Below are positions 9,999 to 44,912 of a stretch of 44,912 bases of DNA, in pieces. Both the position numbers and the translations under genes were made by a program. Origin of the DNA: an uncultured Candidatus Saccharibacteria bacterium (GTDB lineage Bacteria; Patescibacteriota; Minisyncoccia; Portnoybacterales; UBA2143); contig CAZBRM010000002.1 of the NCBI GenBank assembly GCA_964494655.1, positions 1 through 44,912 on the forward strand, given 5' to 3'. The notes below the pieces were generated by a model. That model had not been told where the DNA came from and ran no database searches. It was given only the letters and a program-made list of their open reading frames with translations. Each line of letters opens with the position of its first letter. The stretch's first letter is position 1.

Positions 9999-10013
9999 AA
10001 TTTTTAATAATAT

Positions 10014-11582: not shown

Positions 11583-11583
11583 A

Positions 11584-12183: not shown

Positions 12184-12197
12184 AATATATTTTTAAG

Positions 12198-12914: not shown

Positions 12915-12948
12915 TTTTTATTAAATGATAATTTTAAAAAATTTATTT

Positions 12949-22960: not shown

Positions 22961-22967
22961 TCTTGTT

Positions 22968-24287: not shown

Positions 24288-24291
24288 ATAA

Positions 24292-29631: not shown

Positions 29632-29632
29632 A

Positions 29633-30739
29633 TTAAACCTTAATTGGCATAACTATATAAGAATAATTAATATCTCCAACTGGTCTTATTAAGACTGGTT
29701 TAGTATTATCGTTCAAACCTATAATTACTTTGTCACTATAGATATTATTCAAACCGTCCAAAATATAACGGTAATTAAAAATTACTTCAACTTCTTTTCC
29801 TTTAATTTCTGCTTCTATTTTAGATTTATTTTCTCCTATATCTGCATCTTTTGAGGAAATTTCAATTATAGATTTTTTAGGATCAACAAATATTTTAATA
29901 TCATTAACTTTTCCAGTAAATAAGCTTGCGACTTTAATATTATTAATTAATTCGGCTCTATTAATAATTACTTCTGTTTCTGAATTAGATGGGATAATCT
30001 GTTGATAATCTGGGTATTGTCCATCTATTAATCTTGAAATTATTTGTGTATTATTAAAATCAAATAAAATTTGATTATTTGATAAAGTAATTTTTACTTC
30101 TTCTTGTTCTTTTTTTTCGCTTAAAATTCTAATCACTTCTAATACAGTTCTTTGTGGTATTATAATTGACTGTTCTTTTAATTCTTTAGAATTAATTTCT
30201 ATATTTTTTTCAGCTAAACGAAAACTATCAGTAGCTGCTAATTTAATTGTATTTTTATAAAAATTTATATATATACCTGAAATTTCAGGTCTAGATTCTG
30301 AAGTTGAAGCCATTTCAACTACCTGTATAAAACTATTTTTTAATAAATTATTTTTAATATTTATTAATGGTTGTAATTTAATTTTTGGAATAATTGGAAA
30401 ATCATCAGCACTTAAACCCTTTAAAATAGATTTAAATTTCTTACATTTTAATTCTAATTGTTTATCTTTAACCCTTAATTCTATTTTTTCATTAGGTAAA
30501 TTATTAACAAAATCATTAATTAATTTAGCTGGAACAGTAATACTTCCTCTTTCTTTAATTTTTCCTGGAATCCAACAATTAATTCCTATTTCTAAATTAG
30601 TTGAAGATATTTTTAATTTATTATTTTCTATAGATAATAAAACATTATTTAATATTGGTAATGTTAAATTTCTACCAATTATTCTTTCAACTATATTTAA
30701 TGCTTTTTTAAAATTTTCTTGAAGACAAATTATATTCAT
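29633..30739 (-). CDS. dnaN: DNA polymerase III beta sliding clamp
   Basis: 368 aa, typical three-domain length, ...TLPILNNVLL...ISSTNLEIGI...ATDSFRLAEK...LIDGQYPDYQQIIP.... Sits directly downstream of dnaA. Confidence 0.93.
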   Translation of the reverse strand: MNIICLQENFKKALNIVERIIGRNLTLPILNNVLLSIENNKLKISSTNLEIGINCWIPGKIKERGSITVPAKLINDFVNNLPNEKIELRVKDKQLELKCKKFKSILKGLSADDFPIIPKIKLQPLINIKNNLLKNSFIQVVEMASTSESRPEISGIYINFYKNTIKLAATDSFRLAEKNIEINSKELKEQSIIIPQRTVLEVIRILSEKKEQEEVKITLSNNQILFDFNNTQIISRLIDGQYPDYQQIIPSNSETEVIINRAELINNIKVASLFTGKVNDIKIFVDPKKSIIEISSKDADIGENKSKIEAEIKGKEVEVIFNYRYILDGLNNIYSDKVIIGLNDNTKPVLIRPVGDINYSYIVMPIKV

Positions 30740-30892
30740 TTTAATAATTATAATTTAATTAAATTTATTTATTATTAATATTATTAGTATTTATAAATCT
30801 GTGTAAAACTCTTTTTTTATAATCTATATATTATGTTTTATAATTTATAATATGTTATTAAAAAAGTAAATAACTTGTGGAAAAATTATTTA
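30740..30892. other. dnaA-dnaN intergenic region: extremely AT-rich candidate DNA-unwinding part of oriC
   Basis: By hand count about 14 G+C in 153 nt. DnaA-box-like TGTGGAAAA at 30876..30884 (1 mismatch to TGTGGATAA) and TGTGTAAAA at 30800..30808 (2 mismatches). Confidence 0.4.
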
Positions 30893-32254
30893 TTAATTGT
30901 ATATTTTTTCTTTAATTAAATTAATCTCTTGTTGGAATAACTCGTTGTCCACAATCTCTTTATTTATTTTTCGGCAAGCATACATTACTGTTGTATGATC
31001 TCTTCCTCCTAATTTTTCTCCTATATAAGGATAAGAATTATTTAATTCTTCTCTAATTAAATACATGGTTATTTGTCTAGGATGGACTAATTCTTTTTTT
31101 CTTGATTTATTAATTAAATCATTTGTGTTTACATCATAAAAATCAGCCACTGTTTTAAGAATATTTTTATAATTAGTTTTTCTTTTTGGCGAGTTAATAA
31201 TTTGAGATAATATTTGAGGAACTGTTTTTATATCAGGCGCTGTTTTATTTATTTGCGCAAAAGCTATAATTCTATTAAGCGCTCCTTCTAATTCTCTTAT
31301 ATTATTTTGAATATGTGAAGAAATATAATCTATAACATCTTCAGAAATTTTGATTTTCTTTTCTTTTATTTTATTTTTTAAAATAGCTGTTCTGGTTTCT
31401 AAATCAGGATAACTAATATCAGCTATCATCCCCCCTTCAAAACGAGAGCGAAGACGTTCTTCTAGAGTTGAAATTGATTTAGGTGGTTTATCTGAGCTTA
31501 TAATAATTTGCTTATTTTTCTGATAGAGACTATTGAACATATGAAAAAACTCTTCTTGTGTTTTTTCTTTACCAGCAATAAATTGAATATCATCAATAAT
31601 TAAAGTATCTATTTTATGATATTTATTTTTAAAAGAATCCATTCCTTTTTTTTGGATAGCATCAACTAATTCACTTGTGTATTTTTCCGAGCTAAGATAT
31701 TTGATTTTTTTATTGGGATATCTTTTAAATAATTCATTCCCCATTGCTTGAAGTAAATGTGTTTTTCCTAATCCAACACCTCCATAAATAAATAAAGGAT
31801 TATACATTGTTCCCATATGATCAACAACGGCTCTACTGGCCGCCTGGGCCAATTCATTAAAAGAACCAACAACGAAATTATCAAAAGTATATTTAGGATT
31901 TAAATTTGTTTCTTTATTAAAACTAAATTCCTGAAAATTTAATTGGTCACCAATATTGGTTGGTATTATTTTTGGTATTGTTTTATTAATAGTATTAGTA
32001 AGTGTTTTTTCGTTGCCTATCATAAACTGAATTTCTTTGATGTCTGGAGAATTATTACGAAGAATTTTAAAGATAAGTTTATTATATTTATTTTCAAGCC
32101 ATTCCTTTGTAAAACCATTAGGCGCGCTTACAGTAATAACGCCATTTTTTTTAGAATGGATCTTAGTGTTCTTAAACCAAGTAATGAAACTAGCTTTAGA
32201 AATAGTTAATTCAACTTCGCCTAGCACAGTTTGCCAGAGTTCTTTTAGATTCAT
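30893..32254 (-). CDS. dnaA: chromosomal replication initiator DnaA
   Basis: 453 aa, NPLFIYGGVGLGKTHLLQA, LIIDDIQFIAGKEKTQEEFFH, RSRFEGGMIADI, and C-terminal HPRQITMYLIRE...IGEKLGGRDHTTVMYA. Confidence 0.98.
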   Translation of the reverse strand: MNLKELWQTVLGEVELTISKASFITWFKNTKIHSKKNGVITVSAPNGFTKEWLENKYNKLIFKILRNNSPDIKEIQFMIGNEKTLTNTINKTIPKIIPTNIGDQLNFQEFSFNKETNLNPKYTFDNFVVGSFNELAQAASRAVVDHMGTMYNPLFIYGGVGLGKTHLLQAMGNELFKRYPNKKIKYLSSEKYTSELVDAIQKKGMDSFKNKYHKIDTLIIDDIQFIAGKEKTQEEFFHMFNSLYQKNKQIIISSDKPPKSISTLEERLRSRFEGGMIADISYPDLETRTAILKNKIKEKKIKISEDVIDYISSHIQNNIRELEGALNRIIAFAQINKTAPDIKTVPQILSQIINSPKRKTNYKNILKTVADFYDVNTNDLINKSRKKELVHPRQITMYLIREELNNSYPYIGEKLGGRDHTTVMYACRKINKEIVDNELFQQEINLIKEKIYN

Positions 32255-32371
32255 ATATTATAACTTTTAATTATTGTATCATAATAAAACAAATAAACAA
32301 AATACGTGTTTTTGTTAACAAGATGTGTATGAACTGTGAAGAATTATTATTTAATTAAAGCGTGTTTTAAG
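32255..32371. other. dnaA-rpmH intergenic region with DnaA-box-like repeats (candidate oriC/dnaA control region)
   Basis: TGTGTATGA (32324..32332) and TGTGAAGAA (32335..32343) share orientation, lie 11 nt apart, and each carries 2 mismatches to TGTGGATAA. cgtgtttt is repeated at 32305 and 32361. Confidence 0.35.
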
Positions 32372-32400
32372 TTGACTTTAATAAAAAAAAATACTAGAAT
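32372..32400 (+). promoter_or_regulatory. sigma70-like promoter candidate for rpmH-rnpA-yidC
   Basis: TTGACT (32372..32377), a 17-nt spacer, then TAGAAT (32395..32400), which ends 9 nt before the rpmH ATG. Confidence 0.4.
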
Positions 32401-32409
32401 TAACACATT

Positions 32410-32544
32410 ATGTCTTTCACTTATAATCCCAAAAAGAAGAAAAGAAAAAAAACACATGGTTTTATGGTAAGAATGTCTACTAGATATGGTCGCCGTGTTT
32501 TATCTAAACGAAGAGCAAAAAAGCGTAAAAAATTAACCGTTTAA
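32410..32544 (+). CDS. rpmH: 50S ribosomal protein L34
   Basis: Not in the ORF track (44 aa). Hand translation gives [44 protein letters not shown]. Canonical position between dnaA and rnpA. Confidence 0.93.
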
Positions 32545-32552
32545 TTTTTGGC

Positions 32553-32894
32553 ATGCTTTCAAAAAAATATAAATTAAAAAAGGACAATGATTTTAAGAAA
32601 GTATTTAAAAATGGAAGATACAAACAGAAAGATTTTATTAAAATAAAGTTTTTAAAAAATAATTTAGAAATAAGTAGATTTTCTTTTATAGTAGGATTAA
32701 AGATATCAAAAAAAGCTGTTCAGAGAAATAAAATTAAACGCAGATTAGAAGAAATTATACGATTAAATTCTAAACGAATTATTATAGGTTTTGATATTAT
32801 TGTCTTTGTTGATAAAGAAATAATAGAAAAGAAATATATAGAAATAAAAGAAAATTTAGTTTATTTATTAAAAAAATCAAAGCTAATTATTTAA
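32553..32894 (+). CDS. rnpA: ribonuclease P protein component
   Basis: 113 aa, LKKDNDFKKVFKNGR...VGLKISKKAVQRNKIKRRLEEIIR (the RNR-like motif). Position after rpmH. Confidence 0.9.
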   Translation: MLSKKYKLKKDNDFKKVFKNGRYKQKDFIKIKFLKNNLEISRFSFIVGLKISKKAVQRNKIKRRLEEIIRLNSKRIIIGFDIIVFVDKEIIEKKYIEIKENLVYLLKKSKLII

Positions 32895-32897
32895 AAA

Positions 32898-33638
32898 ATG
32901 GAATTTATAATAAATATATTTAATCAAGTTCTTTATTATCCTTTATTTAATTCTTTAATTTGGCTTTATAGTAATGCCTCTTTTAATGATTTAGGAATAG
33001 CAATTGTTATTTTAACGATTTTAATCCGTTTTATTCTTTATCCTCTTTCAAAAAAGGCAATCCAGTCACAAAAAGCAATGAGCGCTTTACAGCCAAAAAT
33101 AAAAGAGATTCAAAAAAAATATAAAAATAAAGAAGAGCAAGCTAAGCAGATGATGGTTTTGTACAAAGAAAATAAAGTGAATCCAATGACTGGGTGTCTT
33201 CCTATTTTAGTTCAGTTCCCAATTCTTATTGCTTTATATCGTGTTTTTTTTACAGGGTTAGATCCTGAACGACTGAATGGTCTTTATAGTTTTGTCCAAA
33301 GGCCAGAATCTCTTAATTTTATGTTCTTAGGATTAGTTGATCTTTCCACAAGAAGTATTACTCTAGCTGTTATTGCTGGTATTCTTCAGTTTATTCAATC
33401 AAAAATGATTATGCCTAAAAAAATTGCTGGAAAGAAACAAGGGATGAAAATTGGAAATATGGATTTTTCTTCTTTAATGGGTCAGCAAATAACTTATTTT
33501 ATGCCATTGATAACCGTTTTTATTGCATTAAGTTTACCAGCAGCTTTACCCTTGTATTGGATAGTGATAACTTTATTTGGTATTGTCCAGCAATATTTTA
33601 CAAAAATAGATAATAAAATTGTTAAAAATCATGGATAA
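32898..33638 (+). CDS. yidC: membrane protein insertase YidC (short, Gram-positive/CPR type)
   Basis: 246 aa, ...LGIAIVILTILIRFILYPLSKKAIQSQKAMSALQPKIKEIQKKYK...NPMTGCLPILVQFPILIALY... Confidence 0.92.
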   Translation: MEFIINIFNQVLYYPLFNSLIWLYSNASFNDLGIAIVILTILIRFILYPLSKKAIQSQKAMSALQPKIKEIQKKYKNKEEQAKQMMVLYKENKVNPMTGCLPILVQFPILIALYRVFFTGLDPERLNGLYSFVQRPESLNFMFLGLVDLSTRSITLAVIAGILQFIQSKMIMPKKIAGKKQGMKIGNMDFSSLMGQQITYFMPLITVFIALSLPAALPLYWIVITLFGIVQQYFTKIDNKIVKNHG

Positions 33639-34080
33639 AAAAAATATCATAAAGAAAACTGTTACAGAATTACTAAAATTAATGAATTTTAACGGTAGTG
33701 TTTTGATTAACAATTTTGATGAGGATAATATAATAGCTAATATTCAGACAGATCAAGCTGGTTTTTTAATCGGCCAGGCAGGCGCAAGCTTAGATGCTTT
33801 ACAATGTATCGCAAGGACTTTAGTTAATAAAAAAACCAATGAATCAGTAAAATTTATTCTAGACGTTAACGACTATAGAAAGAATAAAATAGATCTCTTA
33901 AAAAATTTGGCAAAAGATATAGCTAAACAGGTTTTATCAAAGAGAGTTGCTGTTACTCTTCAGCCAATGTCTGCTTATGAAAGAAGAATTATACATTTAG
34001 CTTTAATTAATGATTCTCAAATAAATACAGAAAGTATTGGATATGAGCCAGAAAGAAGAATAATTGTAAGACCTCGTTAA
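33631..34080 (+). CDS. jag: Jag/KhpB-like RNA-binding protein (KH + R3H)
   Basis: GFLIGQAGASLDALQ is KH-like and MSAYERRIIHLAL is an R3H motif. The track start at 33619 is TTG; the ATG at 33631 overlaps the yidC end by 8 nt. Confidence 0.8.
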   Translation: MDKKNIIKKTVTELLKLMNFNGSVLINNFDEDNIIANIQTDQAGFLIGQAGASLDALQCIARTLVNKKTNESVKFILDVNDYRKNKIDLLKNLAKDIAKQVLSKRVAVTLQPMSAYERRIIHLALINDSQINTESIGYEPERRIIVRPR

Positions 34081-34083
34081 TTA

Positions 34084-34362
34084 ATGTCCATTAAAGCGAA
34101 AGAAATTATTAATAATAAAGTCATTAATAGAAGTGGTTATTACTTAGGTAGGGTCGTTGATTTTGATATAAATATTTCAACGCAGGCCATTGTAAGATAT
34201 TATGTCCAAGGAAATCTCCTTGGATTTTTTAAAAATCCGTTGATTATTAGCTCTAGTCAGGTTATTAAAATAGAGAAAGATAGAATTATAGTTGAAGATG
34301 CTATTATTCAAAAAAAAATAACTAAAAAGAAGACAGAATCAAGTATAAAATATGCTCAATAA
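34084..34362 (+). CDS. small PRC-barrel-like protein
   Basis: 92 aa. ...VINRSGYYLGRVVDFDINISTQAIVRYYV...ISSSQVIKIEKDRIIVED resembles the PRC-barrel pattern. Assignment is weak. Confidence 0.5.
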   Translation: MSIKAKEIINNKVINRSGYYLGRVVDFDINISTQAIVRYYVQGNLLGFFKNPLIISSSQVIKIEKDRIIVEDAIIQKKITKKKTESSIKYAQ

Positions 34363-35761
34363 AAAAATAGCTTATAATAGCATTATTTCATCTGGGGCTA
34401 GAATCATTGGACTAGCCCTTTCTTTAGTAATAATTGGCTTTATTACGCGCTATCTTGGCAAAGATGGTTTTGGTTATTATTCGGTTATTTTAGCTTTTTT
34501 ATATTTTTTTACGGTTCTAGCTGACTTGGGATTATACTCTATTTGTTTAAGGGATATTTCAAGACCTAATGCAAATGAAAAAAAAATAATAAATAATTCT
34601 TTTACTTTAAGATTTTTTGCCGGATTATTTATTTTTTCTTTTGCTCCTATAATTGTATATTTTTTTCCTTATACAAATGAAGTTAAATTAGGAGTTTTAA
34701 TAGGTTCTTTTGGTTTTTGGATGATGTCTAATCATCAGGTTCTAGTGGGTGTTTTTCAAAAATATTTAAAAATGAACAATGTTGCCATAGCAGAACTTGT
34801 GGGTAGATTATTTCAATTAGTTTTAATTCTGTTTTTCATCTGGCAAAAATTAAATTTTTTGTTTATTGTTTTCGCTTTTGTAGTGGGCGCTTCGATTAAT
34901 TTTATTTTGGTTTTTATATTTATTAGAAAATATGTCCGTATTTCTTTTGAATTTGATTTTATTTTTTGGCGCTCTTTATTAAAAGAATCCTTGCCTCTGG
35001 CTTTAGCTATTATTTTTACTGTAATTTATTTCAAATTAGATACGATTATGCTTTCTTTAATGAAGCCACCTGCTGATGTTGGTATTTATAATTTGTCTTA
35101 TAAGTTTTTAGAGAGTATGCTTTTTTTCCCTGCAATGTTTATTGGATTAGTAATGCCGTTAATGTCTAAATATGCTTTTTCCCTAAGAAAAAAATTTAAT
35201 AAAATTACACAAGAAGCTTTGGATATTTTATTGCTTTTTACTGTTCCATTAATTATCGGAACATTTTTCCTTTCTAAAAAAATTGTTATTTTAATAGCTG
35301 GGAAAGATTTTTTATTATCAGCTGGAGTTTTAAATTTGTTGATTATTGCTGGAGGTATTATTTTTTTAGGAGTTCTTTTTTCTAATATGATTATTTCTTT
35401 AAAAGAGCAAAAAAAATTAATTTATATTTACGGAATTGGCGCAGGAATTAATTTAATAGCCAATTTTATTTTTATACCTAAATATTCATATTATGGCGCA
35501 GCTTGGACAACTATTTTAACTGAATTTATTGTAACAGGACTGATGTTGATTATTCTTTATAGAATACTTAAATCTCTACCATCATTTAATTCTATTTTTA
35601 AATATATTTTGGCTGGATTAATAATGGCTATTCCCCTTTATTATTTACATAATTTATCTTTATTTATTCTTATTGTTTTATCTGGTTTAATTTATTTTGG
35701 TTTTTTGCATTTAATTAATGGAATACCTTTTAACAATGTGAGGAATTTAATTAAAAAATAA
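34352..35761 (+). CDS. Wzx-like flippase / polysaccharide biosynthesis protein (MOP superfamily)
   Basis: 469 aa and about 12-14 TM helices. An N-terminal ...SGARIIGLALSLVIIGFITRYLGKDGFGYYSVILAF pattern is typical of the family. Confidence 0.78.
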   Translation: MLNKKIAYNSIISSGARIIGLALSLVIIGFITRYLGKDGFGYYSVILAFLYFFTVLADLGLYSICLRDISRPNANEKKIINNSFTLRFFAGLFIFSFAPIIVYFFPYTNEVKLGVLIGSFGFWMMSNHQVLVGVFQKYLKMNNVAIAELVGRLFQLVLILFFIWQKLNFLFIVFAFVVGASINFILVFIFIRKYVRISFEFDFIFWRSLLKESLPLALAIIFTVIYFKLDTIMLSLMKPPADVGIYNLSYKFLESMLFFPAMFIGLVMPLMSKYAFSLRKKFNKITQEALDILLLFTVPLIIGTFFLSKKIVILIAGKDFLLSAGVLNLLIIAGGIIFLGVLFSNMIISLKEQKKLIYIYGIGAGINLIANFIFIPKYSYYGAAWTTILTEFIVTGLMLIILYRILKSLPSFNSIFKYILAGLIMAIPLYYLHNLSLFILIVLSGLIYFGFLHLINGIPFNNVRNLIKK

Positions 35762-37065
35762 TGTTTGCCTGGCTTCTTTTTTTAATAGCATATATCCCAT
35801 TTCAAATTGCGTTAAATCCTAGTATTAGATTTGATTTGGCGTCTATTAGGGTTTTTATTATTTTCTTCTTTTTATTTTTTGTTGTTAAAAAATTGATTAA
35901 CAAAGACCTATTTAGAAATAATTATTTTTATAATTTGCAAGGAATTTGTCTAATTCTTTTTTTATTTTTGTCCTGTCTTTCTTTAATAGGCGCAGAAAAT
36001 ATTTTTTGGGGAATAAGAAAAATTATTTTTTTCCTATCTATTTTTCCTCTTTATTTTTTAATTATTGCTTTAATAAATAATTGGCAAAAAATTAAAAAAA
36101 CTATTTTAATTTTAGCAATTAGCAGCAGTTTTTTAGCTTTAATCGGTTTACTTCAGTTCTTATCTCAATTTGTTTTTGGGCTGGAGAAAACTTATAGTTT
36201 TTGGGCTATTAATATTCTGCCTATTTTTTCAGGCTTTAATTTAGGGGCTATGATTTTAGCTTATCCAAGCTGGCTTGTTAATGTAAGTGGAGAAACTATG
36301 ATGAGGGTATTTTCTCTTTTTTCTGATCCACATATGGTTAGCTTTTATATTGGACTTATTTTGCCATTAGTTATGGTCTTACTCTACTGGACAATTAGAA
36401 GAAATCAAGCTAAATTTTCAATTATTTTTATTTTATATTCCACATTATATATTGCATTATTATTGACATTTGCTCGCGGATCTTATATTGCCATTATTAT
36501 TTCTTTTTTAATTTTAATTTTTCTTTTTTGGAAGTATCTTCATGATAAAAAAATAATTATTTTATTATGCTTGTCTTTGTTGATCTTTATTATTCCTGTA
36601 ACTCCGATTGCGGATAGATTTTATTCAACATTTAATTTAAGTGAAGGTTCAAACGCTGGACGTTTAGAAATGTGGCAGATTGCTAGCAATATAGGGATGA
36701 ATAGTTTTTGGAGCGGGATAGGATTGGGAAATTATTCTCTAGCTATTGATTCTGAGTTTGATTATAGAAATCCAGCTACAGCTCATAATCTTTATTTGGA
36801 TATTTTTTCAGAGATTGGATTCCTTGGCTTAATTGTCTGGTTATTTTTAATTCTAGGAACAATCTGGCAGATTGTTAAAAAATTAAAATTTTTAAATAAT
36901 GAAAATCAAAAATGTATTTTAATTTGTTTAATTGGCTCTTTATCTTATTTTTTTATACATAGCTTTTTTGAAACAGCGATTTATAGTCCAAGCGTTTTAG
37001 CGTTATTAATGATCATCTTAGGTTTATCTACTGTTTTATTTAAAAATAATGCAGAAAATAATTAA
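35761..37065 (+). CDS. O-antigen ligase/polymerase-like (Wzy_C domain) membrane protein
   Basis: 434 aa, polytopic. TFARGSYIAIIISF...GRLEMWQ...GIGLGNY...AHNLYLDIFSEIGFLGL is the Wzy_C hallmark. The start overlaps the upstream stop (TAATG). Confidence 0.75.
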   Translation: MFAWLLFLIAYIPFQIALNPSIRFDLASIRVFIIFFFLFFVVKKLINKDLFRNNYFYNLQGICLILFLFLSCLSLIGAENIFWGIRKIIFFLSIFPLYFLIIALINNWQKIKKTILILAISSSFLALIGLLQFLSQFVFGLEKTYSFWAINILPIFSGFNLGAMILAYPSWLVNVSGETMMRVFSLFSDPHMVSFYIGLILPLVMVLLYWTIRRNQAKFSIIFILYSTLYIALLLTFARGSYIAIIISFLILIFLFWKYLHDKKIIILLCLSLLIFIIPVTPIADRFYSTFNLSEGSNAGRLEMWQIASNIGMNSFWSGIGLGNYSLAIDSEFDYRNPATAHNLYLDIFSEIGFLGLIVWLFLILGTIWQIVKKLKFLNNENQKCILICLIGSLSYFFIHSFFETAIYSPSVLALLMIILGLSTVLFKNNAENN

Positions 37066-38224
37066 TTTTATTATTTATTTAATAGTTTTTTCTTTGCCAT
37101 TATATTTGGTTAGTTTTAAAATTGCCTGGATTCCAATAACGGTTTTAGAATTAATGATTTATCCGCTTTTTATTATTTGGTTATTTTATTTTATTATTAA
37201 GAAAAAGAAAATTATAGATTGCAAATTTTATATACCCGCATTATTAATTTTTTTAGGCGCTACTATTTCAACTTTATTATCATTAGACATTCAAGTTAGC
37301 GCTGGCATTTGGAAAGCATGGTTTGTCGCGCCAATGCTTTTTTTTGTAGTTATTATTAATAGTCTTAAAACAAAAAAGCAAATTAAAAATATTATTCTTT
37401 CTTTTATTTTATCTGGTTCTATTGTTGCCTTAATTTCCTTATTCTATTGGTTTAATGAAAATTTAACATATGATAATAGATTACAAGCATTTTATAATTC
37501 GCCAAATTACTTAGCTATGTTTCTGTCCCCTCTTTTATTCTTATCTTTTTATATCTATTCTCTTGTTAAAAACAAGATATTAAAAATATTACTTATTACT
37601 GATTATTTATTATTAATAACTGTTATTTATTTGACTTATTCCTATGGAGCCTGGCTCGGATTAATAGGCGCTGTAATTTTTATTCTAATATTTTTAAAGA
37701 TTAGATTGCGTTATATATTTTTATTTTTTTTAATAATTATTTTATTTTTTTCTTTTCAAGCTTCTAGCTATAAATTTCAAGGATTTCTTGATTTTTCTTA
37801 TCCTTCTTTAAAATCACGCTTAGTTATTTGGCAAAGCTCCTGGGAAATAATAAAAGACCATTCCTTAATTGGGATTGGTCCCGGTATGTTTCAAAAATAT
37901 TATTTAGATGAGCAAATTAATTTTGAGCCGTATTTAGAATGGGCTGTTCCTCAGCCGCATAATATCTTTTTGGCTTTTTGGCTGCAGACCGGCATAATTG
38001 GTTTAATGGGATTGATCTGGTTATTAATAGTTTTTTTTAAAAACGCATTGAGGTTCGATCTTTGCAAGGGCCGAACTTCAATTATTTTAATTGTCCTTGT
38101 TTCCAGTATGATTTGTATATTAATTCATGGGTTAGTTGATACGACTTATTGGAAGAATGATTTAGCAATAATTTTTTGGCTTATTACAGCTCTAATGAGT
38201 AAAGTAGGCCGTCTTTCTGATTAA
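37049..38224 (+). CDS. second O-antigen ligase/polymerase-like (Wzy_C domain) membrane protein
   Basis: 391 aa, polytopic. SYGAWLGLIGAVIF...SRLVIWQ...GIGPGMF...PHNIFLAFWLQTGIIGL. Overlaps the upstream gene by 17 nt. Confidence 0.75.
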   Translation: MQKIINFIIYLIVFSLPLYLVSFKIAWIPITVLELMIYPLFIIWLFYFIIKKKKIIDCKFYIPALLIFLGATISTLLSLDIQVSAGIWKAWFVAPMLFFVVIINSLKTKKQIKNIILSFILSGSIVALISLFYWFNENLTYDNRLQAFYNSPNYLAMFLSPLLFLSFYIYSLVKNKILKILLITDYLLLITVIYLTYSYGAWLGLIGAVIFILIFLKIRLRYIFLFFLIIILFFSFQASSYKFQGFLDFSYPSLKSRLVIWQSSWEIIKDHSLIGIGPGMFQKYYLDEQINFEPYLEWAVPQPHNIFLAFWLQTGIIGLMGLIWLLIVFFKNALRFDLCKGRTSIILIVLVSSMICILIHGLVDTTYWKNDLAIIFWLITALMSKVGRLSD

Positions 38225-39284
38225 TAAATAAAAGATAATCTTCCAATGGCGATAAAAGAAGTTCTTTCGCGTCATAGTCGCTATTATCTTTTATTTTAAT
38301 TATATCTTCGGTTTCTAAATTAATTTGCCAAATCTCGTCAGAAAATGAGATTTTTTCTTTATAATAGTCATCAGGTAAAACAGCTGATACGGGTATGCTT
38401 TTAGGAACTGCACAAAATATTGTTCTATTATCCTGGCTCCAGACGCATTTTTCGGGCAGAGTAATAAAGGTTAATTCTTTTATTATTTGTTCATTTAAAT
38501 CAACTAATTTTAATTTTAAATTCTTACCCTGGCTGTTTGTTTCTGAAATAAGGATTTTATCTCCAAGAGGAGACCAAAGAGCGGTTAATCCGTATGTTTC
38601 TTTGATTATTTTTTTAAGATTATTATCAAATAAGTCAATTGCATAGATAACGCTTTGAGCTAATCCGCTCGGTTTTGTGCGTATTGTTATTTTATTTTCA
38701 TCGGGCCACTCAACAATCAAATCTTTCATCCTTGTTGATAAAATATTGTTCCATTCAGAGCCATCAGGATTAGCTATACTTATATTGCTATCGCCTGTCT
38801 GCGAATCATAGTATTGGTATGCAATTTTCTCCTGTGTTGAAGACCAAGCAATCCATCTTATCTTATAATCTAATAATGTAAAACTATCAGCGTTGTAGTC
38901 ATATAAATATTTTTCAAGTAGATAATCTTTTTCAAAAATAGCAATAACCTTATCTTTATTTTTAGACCAAAGGACTTTGATAAGCCCGGGTAGATTATTT
39001 GAAGATAGTCGTGTTTTATCTGAACCGTCAAAATCTGACTCAAAAATATTTCCATTATTGGCAAGATAGTATCTGGCCTTCTTATTATTAATAATAATCG
39101 GTCCAACGACTGGTTCTTGTGAAATAGGTTTTATTCTGCTATCTAAATATTCGTTTGTTGTATTGTTGTCTGATTTTTCATCAGATTTTGGACTTTCTTT
39201 AATAAAAAAATTATAAATAGCTAAAATTCCTAATGCGATTATAAGGAGAATTATTAAAATAATTAAGATTTTTTTTAATGTCAT
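38184..39284 (-). CDS. membrane-anchored TolB-like (PD40 / WD40-like beta-propeller repeat) protein
   Basis: 366 aa with an N-terminal TM and repeated W-S-x-x-x-x-K-I motifs (LWSKNKDKVIAIF, AWSSTQEKIAYQY, LWSPLGDKILI, VWSQDNRTIF). Confidence 0.62.
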   Translation of the reverse strand: MTLKKILIILIILLIIALGILAIYNFFIKESPKSDEKSDNNTTNEYLDSRIKPISQEPVVGPIIINNKKARYYLANNGNIFESDFDGSDKTRLSSNNLPGLIKVLWSKNKDKVIAIFEKDYLLEKYLYDYNADSFTLLDYKIRWIAWSSTQEKIAYQYYDSQTGDSNISIANPDGSEWNNILSTRMKDLIVEWPDENKITIRTKPSGLAQSVIYAIDLFDNNLKKIIKETYGLTALWSPLGDKILISETNSQGKNLKLKLVDLNEQIIKELTFITLPEKCVWSQDNRTIFCAVPKSIPVSAVLPDDYYKEKISFSDEIWQINLETEDIIKIKDNSDYDAKELLLSPLEDYLLFINQKDGLLYSLEL

Positions 39285-39373: not shown

Positions 39374-39763
39374 TTAGGGTTTTGGCAAATTGGGCGGCGT
39401 TAAGGATGTTAAATCAGGATTAATAGTATTTAAGATAAGATAAGCGCAAAGACCTAAAATTAAACCAGAAATTGCTGCCCAGATGTATTTTTTAGCATCT
39501 TCTTTTGAAACAACAGTATCAGAGAGCATATACATGAATCCGCCATAAACCAAAACACCTAAAGCAGCTATGCCTATTAGTAATAATCCAAAAGTATATA
39601 GAGATTTAATATAATCCGGTAAAGAAACAGGATCCCCAGCTGTTGGTCCTCCAGGAATAGTTACTTCTATTTTATATTCAGCTGAAGAGAAATTAATATT
39701 AATTAAAGAAAAAAAGCAGATTATTATTGAAATTATTGGGATTATGATTAATATTTTTTTCAT
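39374..39763 (-). CDS. T4SS pilin (VirB2/TrbC-like, CPR 'T4SS_pilin' PF18895-type)
   Basis: 129 aa with a signal peptide and two hydrophobic helices. ...LYTFGLLLIGIAALGVLVYGGFMYMLSD....KEDAKKYIWAAISGLILGLCAYLILNTINPDL fits my recollection of the family. Lies in an operon with VirB4. Confidence 0.68.
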   Translation of the reverse strand: MKKILIIIPIISIIICFFSLININFSSAEYKIEVTIPGGPTAGDPVSLPDYIKSLYTFGLLLIGIAALGVLVYGGFMYMLSDTVVSKEDAKKYIWAAISGLILGLCAYLILNTINPDLTSLTPPNLPKP

Positions 39764-40473
39764 GGAATTAATGTTATTTCTATTATTCTCTGCGCTTTTT
39801 GATTTTTATTATTTTTATTCTCTGCAATAACTTCTAATTTTTTCTTAATTGATTCAGTCAATTCATTTATTTTTAATATAAGCGTATTCGGATTATTTTC
39901 ATCTATCTTTAAAGCTTCTTGCCCATCAAATTTCCATTTATAATTCAATTCATTTGTATTGTTTATATTAAAGAAATATGGCTTGGTAACGAATTGCGCT
40001 TCTTGATTTGATTTAATTTCATATTTATTAGGCAAATTTTTTACATAAAGAACAATTTCTGGTTCAGATGTTTCTATTGATAAATAAGCTATTCCCAAAA
40101 AAATATTATTAGTATTTTTTATCTCCAATCTAATTACATTTTTATTATTAATGGTTACTTCCGTATTGAATTTTAAAACTTGTTTGTTTAATCCCGAACT
40201 TTCTTCTTGAAAATAATCATTAATAAACCAGTTATAAATTAAATTTTCAGAATCAATTCTAGAATCATCAATGTTCGCGACTACTTCAATATCGCTGCCT
40301 CTTACGGGTAATGCTTTGCCTTGATATCCTAATGGCGTGTAGGTATCAGTTGACCATGTTAATGTTATATCTATTTGCGATGTCTGGCTTTGAACTAATC
40401 CAGTAATAAAAAACCAGCATCCTATAATCAATATAGTTATTAATAAATAATTTGTTTTTTTTATATCAACCAT
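39760..40473 (-). CDS. signal-anchored secreted protein with two beta-rich repeats, unknown function
   Basis: 237 aa with an N-terminal TM. Two similar modules (LIYNWFINDYFQEESSGLNKQVLKFN and LNYKWKFDGQEALKIDENNPNTLILKIN). ATGA overlap with the pilin gene. Confidence 0.5.
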   Translation of the reverse strand: MVDIKKTNYLLITILIIGCWFFITGLVQSQTSQIDITLTWSTDTYTPLGYQGKALPVRGSDIEVVANIDDSRIDSENLIYNWFINDYFQEESSGLNKQVLKFNTEVTINNKNVIRLEIKNTNNIFLGIAYLSIETSEPEIVLYVKNLPNKYEIKSNQEAQFVTKPYFFNINNTNELNYKWKFDGQEALKIDENNPNTLILKINELTESIKKKLEVIAENKNNKNQKAQRIIEITLIP

Positions 40474-40475
40474 AT

Positions 40476-40874
40476 TTAAACTTTTCCTTTAGCCAATTTA
40501 CTTGCCCATTTAGGTAGATAACCTTTTTGTTCTAAAAATATTATAGCAACAAATCCAGTCCAAAAAGGCAAAATACTTACAAGAGGAATAAAATCTCCAA
40601 CAGTCGCCGTTATAAATTTCCAAGTTGGAAATTTATGAAGCCGAAATAATACCCAAGAACCAAGAATCATAATAACTAAAATATTTATTGACCAGCCAAG
40701 TGCTCCTAAGGTTAAGACATCAAGGATATCTTTAATAACAGCTAAGCAAAAAGCTAAGAAAAATTCTACATCGCTGATTTCACTAATTGACTGAGCTGTT
40801 TTTCGCTTTTTTTTGACTGTTACGTTAGAATTTTTAGCTCTTTCTTGATTCAATTCTTCTGTGTAATTATTCAT
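40476..40874 (-). CDS. small polytopic membrane protein, unknown function
   Basis: 132 aa with a basic cytoplasmic N-terminus and about 3 TM helices. Tightly packed between VirB4 and the secreted protein. Confidence 0.5.
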   Translation of the reverse strand: MNNYTEELNQERAKNSNVTVKKKRKTAQSISEISDVEFFLAFCLAVIKDILDVLTLGALGWSINILVIMILGSWVLFRLHKFPTWKFITATVGDFIPLVSILPFWTGFVAIIFLEQKGYLPKWASKLAKGKV

Positions 40875-40881
40875 AATAATT

Positions 40882-42693
40882 TCAATTTTTTTCTGTATTG
40901 TTTTTTTTATTCTCTTCTTCGGCTAATTCTTGTTTGGCTTTTTCTATTTCAAGTAATTGCGCCGGGTCAGAAGTAATAATCTGGTCTTCGGTGTAAGAAG
41001 CTACTACCTGAATAGCAACATGCTTATTTCCGGCAAATAAGATTCCTTCGCCAACAGCGCTTTCTAAAAGCATATATTTTTCTCTTTCGGTTAAATTAAA
41101 TGTTTCTTTAACTATCTCAATTGACGCAGAAGATTGTTTTAACAACAATTGAAGAGAAGAGTTGGTAACAATTGGTTTTCCGTATTTTGATTTCATGAAA
41201 TCAGATATATCTTGTGTAATTGTTGTCAGTCCGAGATAGTATTTTCTGCATCTTTTGGCAATACCAAAAAGGAAAGAAGCTGCGTCTTCATGTTGCATCA
41301 TTATCCATGCCTCATCAACAACCATCATTCTTTTTTTTGTCTGAGAGCGTATAATATTCCATATATATCTAAGGACAATATACATTGCCAGTGGCCTTAA
41401 TTCATCTTCCATATCTCTAATGCTAAAAACTATTAGTTTTTTATCCAGTTCAACATTAGTCGGCTGATTGAAAAAAATAGCATAGCTTCCGTTTACATAT
41501 TTTTCCAATCGATTAACTAAGCTTTCTGCACCAGTCATTCCTTTTAAAATAGTGTAGAGGTCTTGCATTAAAGGCGGAGTTATTTTGCTGAAATCCGACT
41601 CAGCTGTAATGTCTCTTGCGGCGTATGTTTTTGCAAGGGCTTTATCTATAATTGAATCTTCTTCAGGGGTTAATCCTCCAAGCATCATTCTTAACAGTCC
41701 TACTAAATTAATAATATTGCTTCTTAAAATATCAGTAGGATTATCATCGGGTCCAGGTATTGGTAAATCGAAAGGATTAAGGTGATTATTTGATGTTAAA
41801 GAGATATCTATAAATGATCCCCCTACTGTTTCTGCCAGATATTTATATTCTTTTTCGGGATCAACAATAATAACTTCTGTGTCCTGCATTAAAGAACGCA
41901 GAACTTCTAATTTAACAGAGTATGATTTTCCAGAGCCACTTTTTGCAAATACAACCATATTAGCATTTTCAAGAGTAAAACGGTCAAAAAGGATTAAAGA
42001 ATTATTGTGCCTGTTGATTCCATAGAGAACCCCTTTATTATCAGTTAAATCGGATGATATAAATGGGAATGTTGAGGATAAGGGAGCCGTGTTTAGGTTG
42101 TTATGAACAAGCAATTTATCGCTTTTTAAAGGAAGCGTTGAAATGAATCCCTGTTCTTGCTGAAATACAGCTGGCTTAGCATAAACCATTTGGTTTTCCA
42201 GTATTGCCCTTATTTCATTTTCTATTTTATCTAGTTCTTGAGGAAGATCAGAAAAAAAAGTTATATAAAGTCCGAATTTAAAAAGTTTTTCAGCGTTTCT
42301 TTGTAGTTTATCTCGCAAATCTTCTATACTTTCTACTGCCGTCTCAAGCTTGGGGTCGCGAATTTTGCCTTTTTCAAGTTGTAATGATATTTGTGATTGT
42401 ATCTGAGCGCTTTTTTTAGTAAGTTCCTTTAATGCTTTATTTGTATTTATCGGATTAATAAAAAAAGATATGTTCATTTCCCTATCAAGTGTTATGATTG
42501 GCGAGAGCCAGGCAGTGTTTAAAACTTGCGGATAAGTAAATATAAAGATAGTTCTAGCGTATTTTTCTCCTATTTGTATATAATTAGAGTTTATTTTTAA
42601 TCCGCCTGGAGAGATTAAATCAACAAGATTTATATTATGACTTGTTTCTTCTATATTAGAAGTAGATTTTATTTTTTTAAACAATGATAACAT
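40882..42693 (-). CDS. VirB4/TrbE-family T4SS ATPase (middle and C-terminal ATPase parts)
   Basis: 603 aa. GEKYARTIFIFTYPQVLNTAWLSPI is the VirB4 NTD motif. Walker A VVFAKSGSGKSYSVK at about residue 250, Walker B MMVVDEAW, and ...GLTTITQD.... Confidence 0.85.
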   Translation of the reverse strand: MLSLFKKIKSTSNIEETSHNINLVDLISPGGLKINSNYIQIGEKYARTIFIFTYPQVLNTAWLSPIITLDREMNISFFINPINTNKALKELTKKSAQIQSQISLQLEKGKIRDPKLETAVESIEDLRDKLQRNAEKLFKFGLYITFFSDLPQELDKIENEIRAILENQMVYAKPAVFQQEQGFISTLPLKSDKLLVHNNLNTAPLSSTFPFISSDLTDNKGVLYGINRHNNSLILFDRFTLENANMVVFAKSGSGKSYSVKLEVLRSLMQDTEVIIVDPEKEYKYLAETVGGSFIDISLTSNNHLNPFDLPIPGPDDNPTDILRSNIINLVGLLRMMLGGLTPEEDSIIDKALAKTYAARDITAESDFSKITPPLMQDLYTILKGMTGAESLVNRLEKYVNGSYAIFFNQPTNVELDKKLIVFSIRDMEDELRPLAMYIVLRYIWNIIRSQTKKRMMVVDEAWIMMQHEDAASFLFGIAKRCRKYYLGLTTITQDISDFMKSKYGKPIVTNSSLQLLLKQSSASIEIVKETFNLTEREKYMLLESAVGEGILFAGNKHVAIQVVASYTEDQIITSDPAQLLEIEKAKQELAEEENKKNNTEKN

Positions 42694-42694
42694 A

Positions 42695-43348
42695 TTATTG
42701 GTTTCTTAATTCTTTTGCTTTTTGTAGTTCCGGCTCTTCTTTTGCGTTAGGGTTGTATAGTTTATAAAATAGTTCGACTAATTCTTCTGTCTTTAAAGGC
42801 GCTGTTTTAACACCCATGCCGCGTAATCCAGCAGCTACGAATTCAACTCTTTGCCAGAGGTTATTTTTGAATTCGTTAAATTCCGTTTCTTTTGTTTCAA
42901 TGTTTTTGTTTCTTTTAAAGAATTTTCCAAAAATACTCATGTTTTTAGTAATAAAAGGGCTGTAAGGGATAACAACATAAAATGATTCTGTCATAATATT
43001 GGTAATTTCTGTAAGCCCCTTAATAAAATCAACATATTCTAATGCCTGTATTTTTAAGAGTTCGTTTTCTTGGTCGATTTGTTTTTCTTCTAATATTTGG
43101 ATATATGGGTCAATATCAAATTTTCTTGAAGCAACCATAATTTGTATTGGAAAATCAATTGAATTTAAAAAATCCTGATATTTATAAATGAGAGCGTCCT
43201 GTTCCTCGGTTGATTTTAAATCAAAATTCAAACTAGTAGCCATTAAAATGGCTCTTATCCCTTTATTTTTAAGAATAACTACATCATCTTTAATCTCTTT
43301 AATTTGTATATGTTTTTGGATTAATGCAGATTTGTCTTTACTAATCAT
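42695..43348 (-). CDS. VirB4/TrbE N-terminal-segment-like protein (apparently the detached first ~200 residues of VirB4)
   Basis: 217 aa. IKDDVVILKNKGIRAILMATSLNFDLKSTEEQDALIYKYQDFLNSIDFPIQIMVASRK resembles the extreme N-terminal segment of full-length VirB4/TrbE proteins. Its TAA is 1 nt from the ATG of the 603-aa ORF. Confidence 0.55.
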   Translation of the reverse strand: MISKDKSALIQKHIQIKEIKDDVVILKNKGIRAILMATSLNFDLKSTEEQDALIYKYQDFLNSIDFPIQIMVASRKFDIDPYIQILEEKQIDQENELLKIQALEYVDFIKGLTEITNIMTESFYVVIPYSPFITKNMSIFGKFFKRNKNIETKETEFNEFKNNLWQRVEFVAAGLRGMGVKTAPLKTEELVELFYKLYNPNAKEEPELQKAKELRNQ

Positions 43349-43365
43349 ATTTTATTAATTACATT

Positions 43366-43647
43366 TTATTTTTTTCTTTTCCATAAATATAATTTTGGTT
43401 TTAGAAGATAACTAATTAATGAACCTACAAAATATATAAATGGCCTTCCATTGAATTTATAAAAAGCAAGAAGCAGGCAAAAAGCAATAACAGGAATAGC
43501 TATAATTAAAAAAATCCATAATTCTGCAAAAAACCATAAAATAGCAAGCACGCCTGCGCCTATTAATATATAAAAAAACTGTCTTAGAGTTAACGGTCCG
43601 ATTATTTTATCTTTTATCTCAATAAATTGAGGAACATTAAATTGCAT
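43366..43647 (-). CDS. PrgI/VirB3-like small membrane protein
   Basis: 93 aa. MQFNVPQFIEIKDKIIGPLTLRQFFYILIGAG... followed by two TM helices, the pattern of PrgI-family (PF12666) proteins that precede VirB4. Confidence 0.6.
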   Translation of the reverse strand: MQFNVPQFIEIKDKIIGPLTLRQFFYILIGAGVLAILWFFAELWIFLIIAIPVIAFCLLLAFYKFNGRPFIYFVGSLISYLLKPKLYLWKRKK

Positions 43648-43648
43648 A

Positions 43649-44092
43649 TTATTTTTTTAAATTAACTATATTTCCATTTAATTGAGGTGTATTGGAATTT
43701 TTATTCATGTTCTCATTTTCTCTTGGCCATTCTGAAATCTTATGGATTTTTTTTAAATCATCTTTTACTGGCAGGAATATTGCGCTGTTGATATCTCTAG
43801 CAAGTTGACGGGCTGACTCTCTTTCTAAATTACATTCTTTTTCAACCGATCTTAGAAAATCAATTATATTTGTTTCTCCCAATAGAATCATTCCAGCTAT
43901 ATATGAAGCCCACCAAGTTTGGTCATCATTTAAATTATTTTTTTTTGCTATTTCCAACATTTTACTAGCTGTTTCTTCACTAAATATTGTCTTGCGTAAA
44001 TCTTGAGGTAATTGAAAATATTTAAAATACCTTTGTCTTATTAAGGGGTCAGTAATGTCTTGTAATTGTTTAATTTGATGTGGAGTTAGCAT
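43649..44092 (-). CDS. hypothetical protein in the T4SS-like operon
   Basis: 147 aa, helical, no TM, no family recognised. 1 nt from the downstream gene and 8 nt from the upstream gene. Confidence 0.5.
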   Translation of the reverse strand: MLTPHQIKQLQDITDPLIRQRYFKYFQLPQDLRKTIFSEETASKMLEIAKKNNLNDDQTWWASYIAGMILLGETNIIDFLRSVEKECNLERESARQLARDINSAIFLPVKDDLKKIHKISEWPRENENMNKNSNTPQLNGNIVNLKK

Positions 44093-44100
44093 AGTTTATT

Positions 44101-44910
44101 TTATAACGGATGCTTTTCGCTCCATTCTTTATCGCTTTCTGGTTTTGGTTTTGATACTGCCTTTCCTGTTGTGGTATTATAATATTCTCGAATTTCATCT
44201 TTCATGTCTTTCATATTTTTTCCTATAATATCATCCATTAATCTATTATAAAGCACTGGGTTTTCATCACCTGCTTTAATTAATACTGATTTGCCTAATT
44301 TGCCGCCAAGTTTAAACTGTTTTTTAAAAGCATCAAAAACCATTTTTTGATTTCCTTCCGATTTTTCACCTGGCTTTCCGATTGCTTCTATTTGAATCTT
44401 TTCTATATCTTTAGTTTTTATATTTCCAACTGCTTCGTTAATTTCTTCCTCAACTTTTTTTATGTCTTGTGGATCTATGTTTTTTGCTATAGGCGCTAAA
44501 TCAAGTCTAGATACAATAACATCTTTTTCTTGGCCATATTTTTTTGTTAATTCTATCATTTTCTTTATTTTCTTATCATCAAAGTTTTTAAGTCCATCTT
44601 TGCGTCCTGCTAAAATTTTACCAATAGCAGCTTTGTTTTGTGGATTTGCTGATTCATAGTCTTGTTCAAGATTTTTAGTAGTTCTGTCTTTGTATTTCTT
44701 TTCTGCTCCAGCAAAAGCAGTTCTTTCTCTTTCTTCAAAAGCTCGAGGTCCTCTACCTATTTGTTTTGTTGCCCATTTAGCTCCTGTTACTTTACCAACC
44801 CATCCCATTTTTTCGCCATAATTACCTATTCCTCTTCCTATTTTTCCAGCTCTCTCAGCCGTTGCCGTTTGAACTCTTCTACCTGCCCATTTAGCACTTC
44901 CTTTACCAGC
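44101..44910 (-). CDS. Gly/Lys-rich hypothetical protein, probably 5'-truncated by the window edge
   Basis: The track calls 44101..44808, but the frame stays open for all 34 codons up to the edge (AGKGSAKWAGRRVQTATAERAGKIGRGIGNYGEK-MGWVGKVTGAKWATKQIGRG...). The G-x-AKWA motif recurs on both sides of the called ATG. Confidence 0.5.
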   Translation of the reverse strand, partial: AGKGSAKWAGRRVQTATAERAGKIGRGIGNYGEKMGWVGKVTGAKWATKQIGRGPRAFEERERTAFAGAEKKYKDRTTKNLEQDYESANPQNKAAIGKILAGRKDGLKNFDDKKIKKMIELTKKYGQEKDVIVSRLDLAPIAKNIDPQDIKKVEEEINEAVGNIKTKDIEKIQIEAIGKPGEKSEGNQKMVFDAFKKQFKLGGKLGKSVLIKAGDENPVLYNRLMDDIIGKNMKDMKDEIREYYNTTTGKAVSKPKPESDKEWSEKHPL

Positions 44911-44912
44911 GC

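Follow-up and report, generated by a model that had tools for sequence, protein, structure and literature searches.

A chromosomal Patescibacteria-type type IV secretion gene cluster with a two-piece VirB4 and no relaxase nearby in a Portnoybacteria-like genome

Results

Gene content and extent of the cluster

The window analyzed here comprises positions 1 to 44,912 of contig CAZBRM010000002.1 (assembly GCA_964494655.1), and the genes of a type IV secretion system (T4SS) lie at its right-hand end. Eight co-directional open reading frames (ORFs) are packed on the minus strand at 39374-44910 with spacings of 8, 1, 17, 1, 7, 2 and −4 nt. These coordinates reproduce exactly the sizes and spacings given in an earlier, sequence-only reading of this DNA. 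The first gene had been described there as truncated, and the first frame on the minus strand from 44912 is stop-free up to base 44910, i.e., the gene is cut by the window edge. A ninth co-directional ORF of 366 residues follows 89 nt after the pilin gene. In order of transcription, the cluster genes in the window are:

44101-44912, minus strand: C-terminal ~270 codons of a VirB6/TrbL-like protein, a hydrophilic, Gly/Lys-rich tail open to the edge (full protein, 677 residues)
43649-44092, minus strand: soluble protein of 147 residues between the VirB6-like and PrgI genes; no transmembrane segment; no Pfam, NCBIfam or PDB match
43366-43647, minus strand: PrgI/VirB3-like protein of 93 residues with two transmembrane segments (Pfam PrgI)
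42695-43348, minus strand: TrsD-like protein of 217 residues, the detached N-terminal ~200 residues of VirB4 (hhalign, NCBIfam)
40882-42693, minus strand: VirB4 ATPase of the MPF-FATA type, 603 residues, lacking the first ~200 canonical residues (Pfam, NCBIfam, PDB 4AG5)
40476-40874, minus strand: membrane protein of 132 residues with three transmembrane segments (hydropathy; no Pfam or NCBIfam match)
39760-40473, minus strand: membrane-anchored extracytoplasmic protein of 237 residues with predicted tandem Ig/FN3-like domains (AlphaFold2, Foldseek)
39374-39763, minus strand: precursor of a VirB2-like T4SS pilin, 129 residues, with a signal peptide and two hydrophobic helices (Pfam T4SS_pilin)
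38184-39284, minus strand: membrane-anchored, predicted TolB/WD40-like beta-propeller of 366 residues, the last cluster gene (AlphaFold2, Foldseek, synteny)

An identical copy of the 603-residue VirB4 is encoded on 11 public metagenome contigs. The final 14 kb of the window align, with 6 mismatches, to a 64.6-kb contig, L002, which therefore comes from the same population and serves as a guide to the sequence past the window edge. The full cluster comprises about 12 genes (L002 3065-14510), nine of which are wholly or partly inside the window. The eight genes of the sequence-only reading are thus correct as far as they go, and the operon is longer at both ends: it runs on through the 366-residue gene to 38184, and near-identical contigs carry three further co-directional genes upstream of the VirB6-like gene:

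Upstream of the window (L002), co-directional: membrane-anchored protein of 334 residues with Ca-binding TSP3 repeats (Pfam TSP3_bac, 42 bits)
Upstream of the window (L002), co-directional: exported protein of 637 residues with 12 Cys
Upstream of the window (L002), co-directional: protein of 185 residues with a Cys-rich tail

Promoter and terminator scans returned counts equal to the shuffled expectation and do not fix the operon boundaries. Farther upstream on L002 lie two divergent genes for small exported proteins, followed by ksgA and a UvrD-type helicase gene. The divergent pair (L002 1756-2914, minus strand) encodes exported or lipoprotein-like proteins of 176 and 204 residues that are rich in Gly, Pro, Trp and Arg, have no family match and are kept in the 10-12 closest species only.

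By VirB4, the closest named relatives are Candidatus Portnoybacteria (73-76% identity), followed by Azam-, Moran- and Doudnabacteria and Kazan. VirB4 identity is 56-91% for the 80 closest genome loci, nearly all of which are named as Patescibacteria; three are labeled as metagenome-assembled genomes (MAGs) of Bdellovibrionales or Gammaproteobacteria. Portnoybacteria fall within the Parcubacteria group of Patescibacteria, and the genome is assigned, by sequence relationship, to the Parcubacteria as Portnoybacteria-like. The label "uncultured Candidatus Saccharibacteria" borne by many related MAGs looks generic and was not used for taxonomy, as the named relatives point to Portnoybacteria.

The VirB4 motor and its membrane anchors

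The 603-residue protein is recognized as a VirB4 by Pfam (P-loop_TraG, 89.8 bits; CagE_TrbE_VirB, 29.3 bits), by the NCBIfam model conju_CD1110 (392 bits, cut-off 325) and by comparison with the PDB, in which the C-terminal domain of Thermoanaerobacter VirB4 (4AG5) matches with an E value of 5e-45 and the Gram-negative TrwK with 1.8e-6. Both Walker motifs are intact, with motif A (AKSGSGKS) at residue 250 and motif B (MMVVDEA) at residue 456, in agreement with the ATPase assignment proposed earlier. Plasmid-borne VirB4 proteins of Bacillota and Actinomycetota are the nearest relatives on plasmids and share 30-36% identity. In every full-length VirB4 profile, the part that aligns with the protein begins at about position 180-276 (CD1110, 183-734 of 752; TIGR00929, 238-729 of 792; Mbov_0397, 276-893 of 894).

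The 217-residue product of the gene directly upstream aligns with positions 99-269 of the Mbov_0397 VirB4 profile (NCBIfam VirB4_plasma; E 9.5e-9) and with positions 12-200 of the 201 in the NCBIfam TrsD/TraD model NF041427 (24.2 bits, E 2.5e-5), missing the 200-bit cut-off of the latter; it also has a precomputed PF26593 TraC-like match. On these alignments the protein is a homologue of TrsD/TraD and not a member of the curated subfamily NF041427. The proposed split of VirB4 was examined by aligning the profile of the 217-residue family with the first 233 residues of a one-piece, 797-residue clostridial plasmid VirB4 by hhalign. The family aligns with residues 21-196 of that protein (E 4e-7, probability 92.8%), and there is no match to the neighboring 328-residue protein of the same plasmid. 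A search of the same profile against PDB sequences gave chance matches only (XopAI, E 0.48). The alternative that the 217-residue protein is a paralogue of the ATPase's own N-terminal region was ruled out: hhalign of the two family alignments gives an E value of 0.35, and the small protein is therefore the missing piece and not a duplicate of the region retained in the 603-residue VirB4. The alignment directly shows, at the level of homology, that the TrsD-like protein is the detached N-terminus of VirB4, with the 603-residue protein covering the remainder, as the sequence-only reading had supposed. As the TrsD-like and virB4 genes are separate and adjacent in 75/75 related species, the split is ancient and no frameshift artefact.

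The 93-residue protein has two hydrophobic segments and matches Pfam PrgI with 44.6 bits (cut-off 27) and TcpE with 21.8 bits, which bears out its description as PrgI/VirB3-like. As a separate observation, the 477-position NCBIfam profile SCO6880, an actinobacterial family, is matched consecutively by PrgI (11-77), the TrsD-like protein (240-299) and the N-terminal region of VirB4 (362-475). This order of matches suggests a natural fusion of VirB3 with the N-terminal part of VirB4 in Streptomyces elements.

The truncated Gly/Lys-rich protein had been counted among the partners without assignment, and VirB6 among the components absent from the window. Both statements are revised here, as the truncated gene encodes the tail of a 677-residue VirB6/TrbL-like protein that is complete in the near-identical contigs L001-L005; the remainder of the absence claim stands, with no relaxase or VirD4 in the window and no VirB8-like or VirB1-like component recognized. 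The VirB6 assignment leans on a precomputed PF19590 (TrbL_3) match and on an Azambacteria orthologue that passes the Pfam TrbL/VirB6 threshold (PF04610; 26.1 vs 25.9 bits), whereas hmmscan of the 677-residue protein itself gave no Pfam match. Its hydropathy profile has eight hydrophobic segments in residues 1-380, i.e., a signal or transmembrane segment and about seven more, all of them encoded past the window edge, and a weak NCBIfam match is seen to the CD3337/EF1877 mobilome membrane protein.

Pilin and extracytoplasmic partners

The 129-residue protein has, by hydropathy, a Sec-type signal peptide and two hydrophobic helices. It scores 24.8 bits with Pfam T4SS_pilin, just under the cut-off of 26.6, and matches the NCBIfam Mbov_0395 pilin-like family with an E value of 1.5e-4. 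T4SS_pilin is the best match in 5/5 pilin orthologues tested, one of which passes (27.0 bits), and the earlier description of the protein as a VirB2-like pilin is retained. The membrane core, as assigned by homology, consists of a VirB6-like polytopic protein, a PrgI/VirB3 anchor, a two-piece VirB4 motor and one VirB2-like pilin.

An AlphaFold2 model of the 366-residue protein, built with 25 homologues, has a mean predicted local distance difference test (pLDDT) score of 89.4 and contains an N-terminal transmembrane helix followed by an all-beta propeller. The closest solved folds by Foldseek are the propellers of TolB, WD40 proteins and acylaminoacyl-peptidase (E ~1e-11). Its gene starts 64 nt or less from the pilin gene in 27/29 loci. 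The propeller gene belongs to the T4SS cluster; its linkage to virB4 within this part of the phylum is roughly as tight as that of VirB6. The 237-residue protein is modeled with a pLDDT of 88.3 as an N-terminal membrane helix and two beta-sandwiches, with tandem FN3/Ig modules as the top Foldseek matches (E 5e-8); its 59 homologues all belong to the Portnoybacteria-like lineage. A role for this protein as a VirB8 analogue was rejected, as the fold is tandem Ig/FN3 and not NTF2, and no NTF2-like (VirB8-like) domain is present in either of the two modeled cluster proteins. The propeller and the tandem-Ig protein are candidate lineage-specific structural parts.

The 132-residue protein has three hydrophobic segments, in line with its earlier description. 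It was considered as a second pilin or a VirB3 and rejected on hhalign E values of 0.27 and 0.039 over short overlaps. Comparison of the family profiles of the 637-, 334- and 147-residue proteins with the PDB returned nothing useful except the Ca-binding TSP3-type repeat of the 334-residue protein. Overall, the partners of the core are a membrane-anchored extracytoplasmic set of beta-propeller, tandem-Ig, Ca-binding TSP3-repeat and Cys-rich proteins.

Conservation and selection

The 12 cluster proteins were used in iterative searches of all ORFs from 80 independent loci, about one per species, that had been retrieved with VirB4; the counts below cover only loci with enough flanking sequence. 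The order VirB6-(147-residue protein)-PrgI-TrsD-VirB4-...-propeller is conserved across these 80 Patescibacteria loci. Occurrence by species is as follows:

TrsD-like: same position, directly upstream of virB4, in 75/75
PrgI: same position in 72/72
VirB6-like: upstream of virB4 in 45/49
366-residue propeller: co-directional, downstream of virB4 in 40/45
334-residue protein: same position in 18/24
637-residue protein: same position in 15/24
132-residue protein: directly after virB4 in 35/64
147-residue protein: same position in 33/69
Pilin: same position in 21/45
237-residue protein: same position in 12/45

Relative to the closest other species, the ratio of nonsynonymous to synonymous substitution rates (dN/dS) is 0.07-0.42 for all cluster genes, which corresponds to purifying selection. 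Constraint is strongest in VirB4, the propeller (0.094) and the TrsD-like protein (0.10) and weakest in the large surface proteins and VirB6; the 147-residue gene has a value of 0.135. Because the order recurs in 80 independent loci and the genes are under such constraint, the tight arrangement is not due to chance.

A different arrangement is seen in the Doudnabacteria-like loci L053-L084. In these loci, a single gene of 330-430 codons, with three C-terminal hydrophobic segments in its product, replaces the trio of 132-residue, 237-residue and pilin genes between virB4 and the propeller gene; no pilin is detectable by sequence in that interval, and the VirB6-like protein is ~1,100-1,400 residues long.

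Genomic setting and search for conjugation functions

On the side away from ksgA, the cluster is flanked by Wzy, yidC, rnpA, rpmH, dnaA and dnaN genes. Some 6 kb separate the last cluster gene from dnaA, where the cumulative GC skew has its minimum. The remainder of the window is housekeeping (aminoacyl-tRNA synthetases, SmpB, IF3, L20, HolA, RuvABC-region genes, PBP1, dnaN, dnaA, rnpA, yidC, jag), together with a flippase and two Wzy-type genes, and the 10 kb past the opposite window end is housekeeping as well.

The visible contiguous chromosome is ~63 kb, i.e., the window, 7.8 kb upstream of its edge and 10 kb past its other end. No relaxase (MOB) gene was found in this region, the window ORFs of at least 90 codons having been scanned except for three overlapping shadow ORFs. 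Likewise, no VirD4/TcpA-type coupling protein is present in the ~63 kb, where the sole T4SS-DNA_transf signal is a sub-threshold stretch inside VirB4, and neither an integrase/recombinase domain nor a tRNA gene was found there. The cluster is thus without a relaxase or coupling protein nearby.

These results bear on the view that the genes belong to an ordinary integrative and conjugative element (ICE), or to a decaying remnant of one, with the relaxase and coupling protein out of view. The nearest VirB4 relatives outside Patescibacteria do sit on conjugative-type plasmids of Bacillota and Actinomycetota, and the VirB6-PrgI-x-VirB4 order is common to those plasmids. However, identity to the plasmid VirB4 proteins does not exceed the 30-36% given above, and the cluster and its immediate surroundings contain no relaxase, type IV coupling protein, integrase or tRNA gene (no search for direct repeats was made). 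The sequence-only reading had held that a full conjugative element immediately upstream would make this an ordinary ICE; past position 44912 there are instead ksgA and the UvrD-type helicase gene, with no relaxase, coupling protein or integrase. The flanking core genes keep their synteny with the cluster across species (e.g., ksgA in 20 loci), the G+C content of the cluster is similar to that of its surroundings, and all ORFs are intact and under the constraint described above. In a survey of 3,035 Patescibacteria genomes, only 15 of 2,474 patescibacterial virB4 genes had a relaxase nearby (Quinonero-Coronel et al. 2025, PMC12102498). The ICE view is largely refuted for the visible 63 kb, and we regard it as highly improbable.

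Comparison with known systems

In that survey, the patescibacterial VirB4 clade is nested in the mating-pair formation class MPF-FATA, with TrsD as its most abundant partner; PrgI/VirB3, VirB6 and VirB2-like pilins are found near virB4, and the cluster is often close to dnaA, dnaN, rnpA, ksgA and rpmH in Paceibacteria and Microgenomatia (PMC12102498). The locus has the following in common with these systems: a VirB4 of MPF-FATA affinity, a separate TrsD-like gene, and PrgI/VirB3, VirB6 and a VirB2-like pilin by virB4, in a chromosomal position by dnaA/dnaN/rnpA/rpmH/ksgA with no relaxase or coupling protein adjacent. It is probably a further example of the Patescibacteria-clade T4SS described in 2023-2025, systems that a 2025 review considers unique among monoderm T4SSs (PMC12857230). 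No mention of the propeller was found in the main text of the 2025 survey (PMC12102498).

The sequence-only reading had regarded such gene sets as not functionally defined. This no longer holds in full for the class, which has been surveyed as described and whose Saccharibacteria representative, pilin array included, is essential in co-culture/epibiotic growth by transposon-insertion sequencing (Tn-seq; Wang et al. 2023, PMC10633639). Similar to the Southlakia epibionticum ML1 cluster (SEML1_0004/0006-0019), the locus encodes an exported tandem-Ig protein, comparable to the essential SEML1_0005 and in a similar position. In contrast to the Saccharibacteria cluster with its 6-gene pilin array, there is a single pilin gene here, no lysozyme/peptidase (VirB1-like) or NTF2 (VirB8-like) gene was recognized, and a membrane-anchored beta-propeller gene follows the pilin gene; the supplementary rows of Wang et al. 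for that cluster, with which this comparison was made, contain no propeller term.

There is also a likeness to monoderm MPF-FATA conjugative systems, the CD1110/CTn-type clostridial plasmids among them: VirB4 passes the CD1110 threshold, and the VirB6-PrgI-x-VirB4 order recurs on a conjugative-type plasmid from a clostridium, together with VirD4 and an SLT hydrolase. The pair of a TrsD and a shorter VirB4 gene (TrsD/TrsE) recalls pGO1, of the pGO1/pSK41/pIP501 TrsC-TrsD-TrsE subclass. Conjugative systems of the MPF-FATA class differ from this locus in that VirD4, a relaxase and an SLT/CHAP hydrolase are present and a VirB2-type pilin is lacking, and the distance to the MPF-FATA plasmids is evident both in the VirB4 identity and in the TrsD NCBIfam score (24 vs 200 bits). 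The TrsD-like protein and VirB4 also tile colinearly on the Mycoplasma ICE profile Mbov_0397 (99-269 and 276-893 of 894). All scores with the Mycoplasma ICE families are under the cut-offs (298 vs 590, 33.5 vs 590 and 21 vs 40 bits), and the Mycoplasma ICEs differ in being mobile and in having VirB4 in one piece.

A functional likeness only is seen to the archaeal Ced/Ted systems, which are domesticated chromosomal T4SS derivatives with a VirB2-like pilin, a VirB6-like channel and a VirB4-like ATPase and without a relaxase or coupling protein. Such VirB2-VirB4-VirB6 sets without a relaxase can import DNA (Beltran et al. 2023, PMC9905601). Unlike the present cluster, Ced/Ted lack PrgI, TrsD pieces and extracytoplasmic partners, and they serve DNA repair between conspecific cells and not contact of an epibiont with its host.

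Discussion

Taken as a whole, the locus is, with good confidence, best explained as a chromosomal, vertically inherited Patescibacteria-type T4SS that derives from monoderm MPF-FATA conjugation machinery and would serve the epibiont-host interface and not conjugation. By established T4SS biology, PrgI would anchor the VirB4 ATPase, and the TrsD-like piece would supply the N-terminal domain for contact with VirB3 and the membrane, linking VirB3 to the ATPase hexamer. VirB4 would then pull the pilin from the membrane, and the pilin may polymerize on the VirB6 platform into a wall-crossing pilus or tube. The propeller, Ig and Ca-binding proteins might scaffold passage through the wall or bind the host.

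Several points weigh against this explanation. The pilin's own Pfam score falls just below the curated threshold. VirB8-like and VirB1-like components were not recognized among the cluster proteins; the 147-, 132-, 637- and 185-residue proteins are without a fold assignment, and the 334-residue protein has a Ca-binding repeat only. It is possible that the propeller is an unrelated envelope protein with nothing in common with the cluster beyond conserved synteny. A distant VirD4-like coupling protein may exist beyond the ~63 kb of the genome that was seen, and VirD4-like homologues are present in most Patescibacteria genomes, far from virB4 (PMC12102498). Finally, substrate and transport direction are proposed by analogy.

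As to direction, the least certain step, the machine may be a conduit for the uptake of host macromolecules, nucleic acids in particular. Such uptake is favored by analogy with Ced/Ted and Helicobacter ComB, since coupling-protein-less VirB2-VirB4-VirB6 sets import in archaea. It is also favored because Patescibacteria cells lack nucleotide synthesis (PMC10633639; PMC12102498) and because comEC is dispensable in Saccharibacteria co-culture, whereas the T4SS is not (PMC12857230). A 2026 preprint describes tubular structures, possibly T4SS pili, at the parasite-host interface of a host-RNA-feeding organism. A more specific form of this proposal, which we put forward as tentative and rather doubtful in its details, is an inward "feeding tube" in which the pilus, the VirB6 channel and the two-piece VirB4 would import host nucleic acids or other macromolecules into a cell unable to make nucleotides; in the Parcubacteria-type version, the propeller would be a so far unlisted structural subunit that guides the pilus through the wall in place of a VirB8/9/10 scaffold.

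The main alternative for direction, and a serious rival, is that the same machine works outward and injects effectors or toxins into the host, as do Brucella VirB, Bordetella Ptl and Xanthomonas-type interbacterial T4SSs. Protein export was named as an option by Wang et al. on the grounds of the missing relaxase and coupling proteins (PMC10633639), exporters without a coupling protein are known (Ptl, Brucella), and the cluster includes genes for several secreted or surface proteins. Export of cytoplasmic effectors, however, normally requires a coupling protein, of which there is none in the ~63 kb, and no candidate effector with a recognizable toxin or enzyme domain lies in or beside the cluster. 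We judge outward injection to be possible, though short of probable.

Less likely, as is a hidden ICE, is an adhesive pilus that serves host attachment without translocation. VirB2, VirB3, VirB4 and VirB6 are the parts required for pilus biogenesis, and the Ig-like, propeller and Ca-binding extracytoplasmic proteins resemble adhesion or scaffold modules. Yet type IV pili are already present for adhesion, with a PilB-type ATPase encoded in the window at 15600-17339, and are implicated in Saccharibacteria host adhesion (PMC12857230; PMC10633639); it can also be argued that the retention of a second full apparatus near oriC, in a genome of ~1 Mb, points to a separate role. An adhesion-only pilus is considered improbable.

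Patescibacteria, which are dependent on host cells, account for a large share of bacterial diversity, and before theirs no T4SS had been shown to be essential for the growth of its own carrier. The locus leaves this picture unchanged. What it offers is a clean, compact Parcubacteria-type example with ~12 genes and one pilin. Beyond confirmation, it adds the VirB6-like identity of the truncated gene, the correspondence of the TrsD-like protein to the VirB4 N-terminus and the linkage of the propeller to virB4.

Other features of the window

The PilB-type T2SSE/type IV pilus ATPase gene (15600-17339, plus strand; 389 bits) stands alone between tsaE and ruvB, with no PilC, PilM or pilin genes adjoining.

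At 29000-37000, around dnaN, dnaA, rpmH, rnpA, yidC and jag, the G+C content falls to 23-26%; together with a cumulative GC skew minimum near 30-32 kb, this is consistent with a replication origin. A simple DnaA-box scan gave 20 matches against 12.5 expected and no cluster, so oriC was not located.

A signaling cluster at 9633-14136 (minus strand) encodes a FIST-domain protein, a PAS protein, a 199-residue protein of no family, a PAS-PAS histidine kinase and a stand-alone receiver, an unusual sensory investment for a very small genome. At 19225-20862 (plus strand) lies the gene for a 545-residue protein that combines a PKD domain with two lamin-tail (LTD) domains and is probably a surface protein. 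Three genes at 22298-25788 (plus strand) encode a 7TM_transglut membrane protein, an ATPgrasp_ST protein whose C-terminal region is Zn/aspartyl-protease-like, and another ATP-grasp protein; the trio looks like a peptide-ligase/modification module. Finally, the isoleucyl-tRNA synthetase that is a 955-residue ORF in the window (767-3634) is called as two ORFs of 675 and 188 residues in the near-identical contig L088 (7043-9909), which reflects either a strain-level frameshift or an assembly error.

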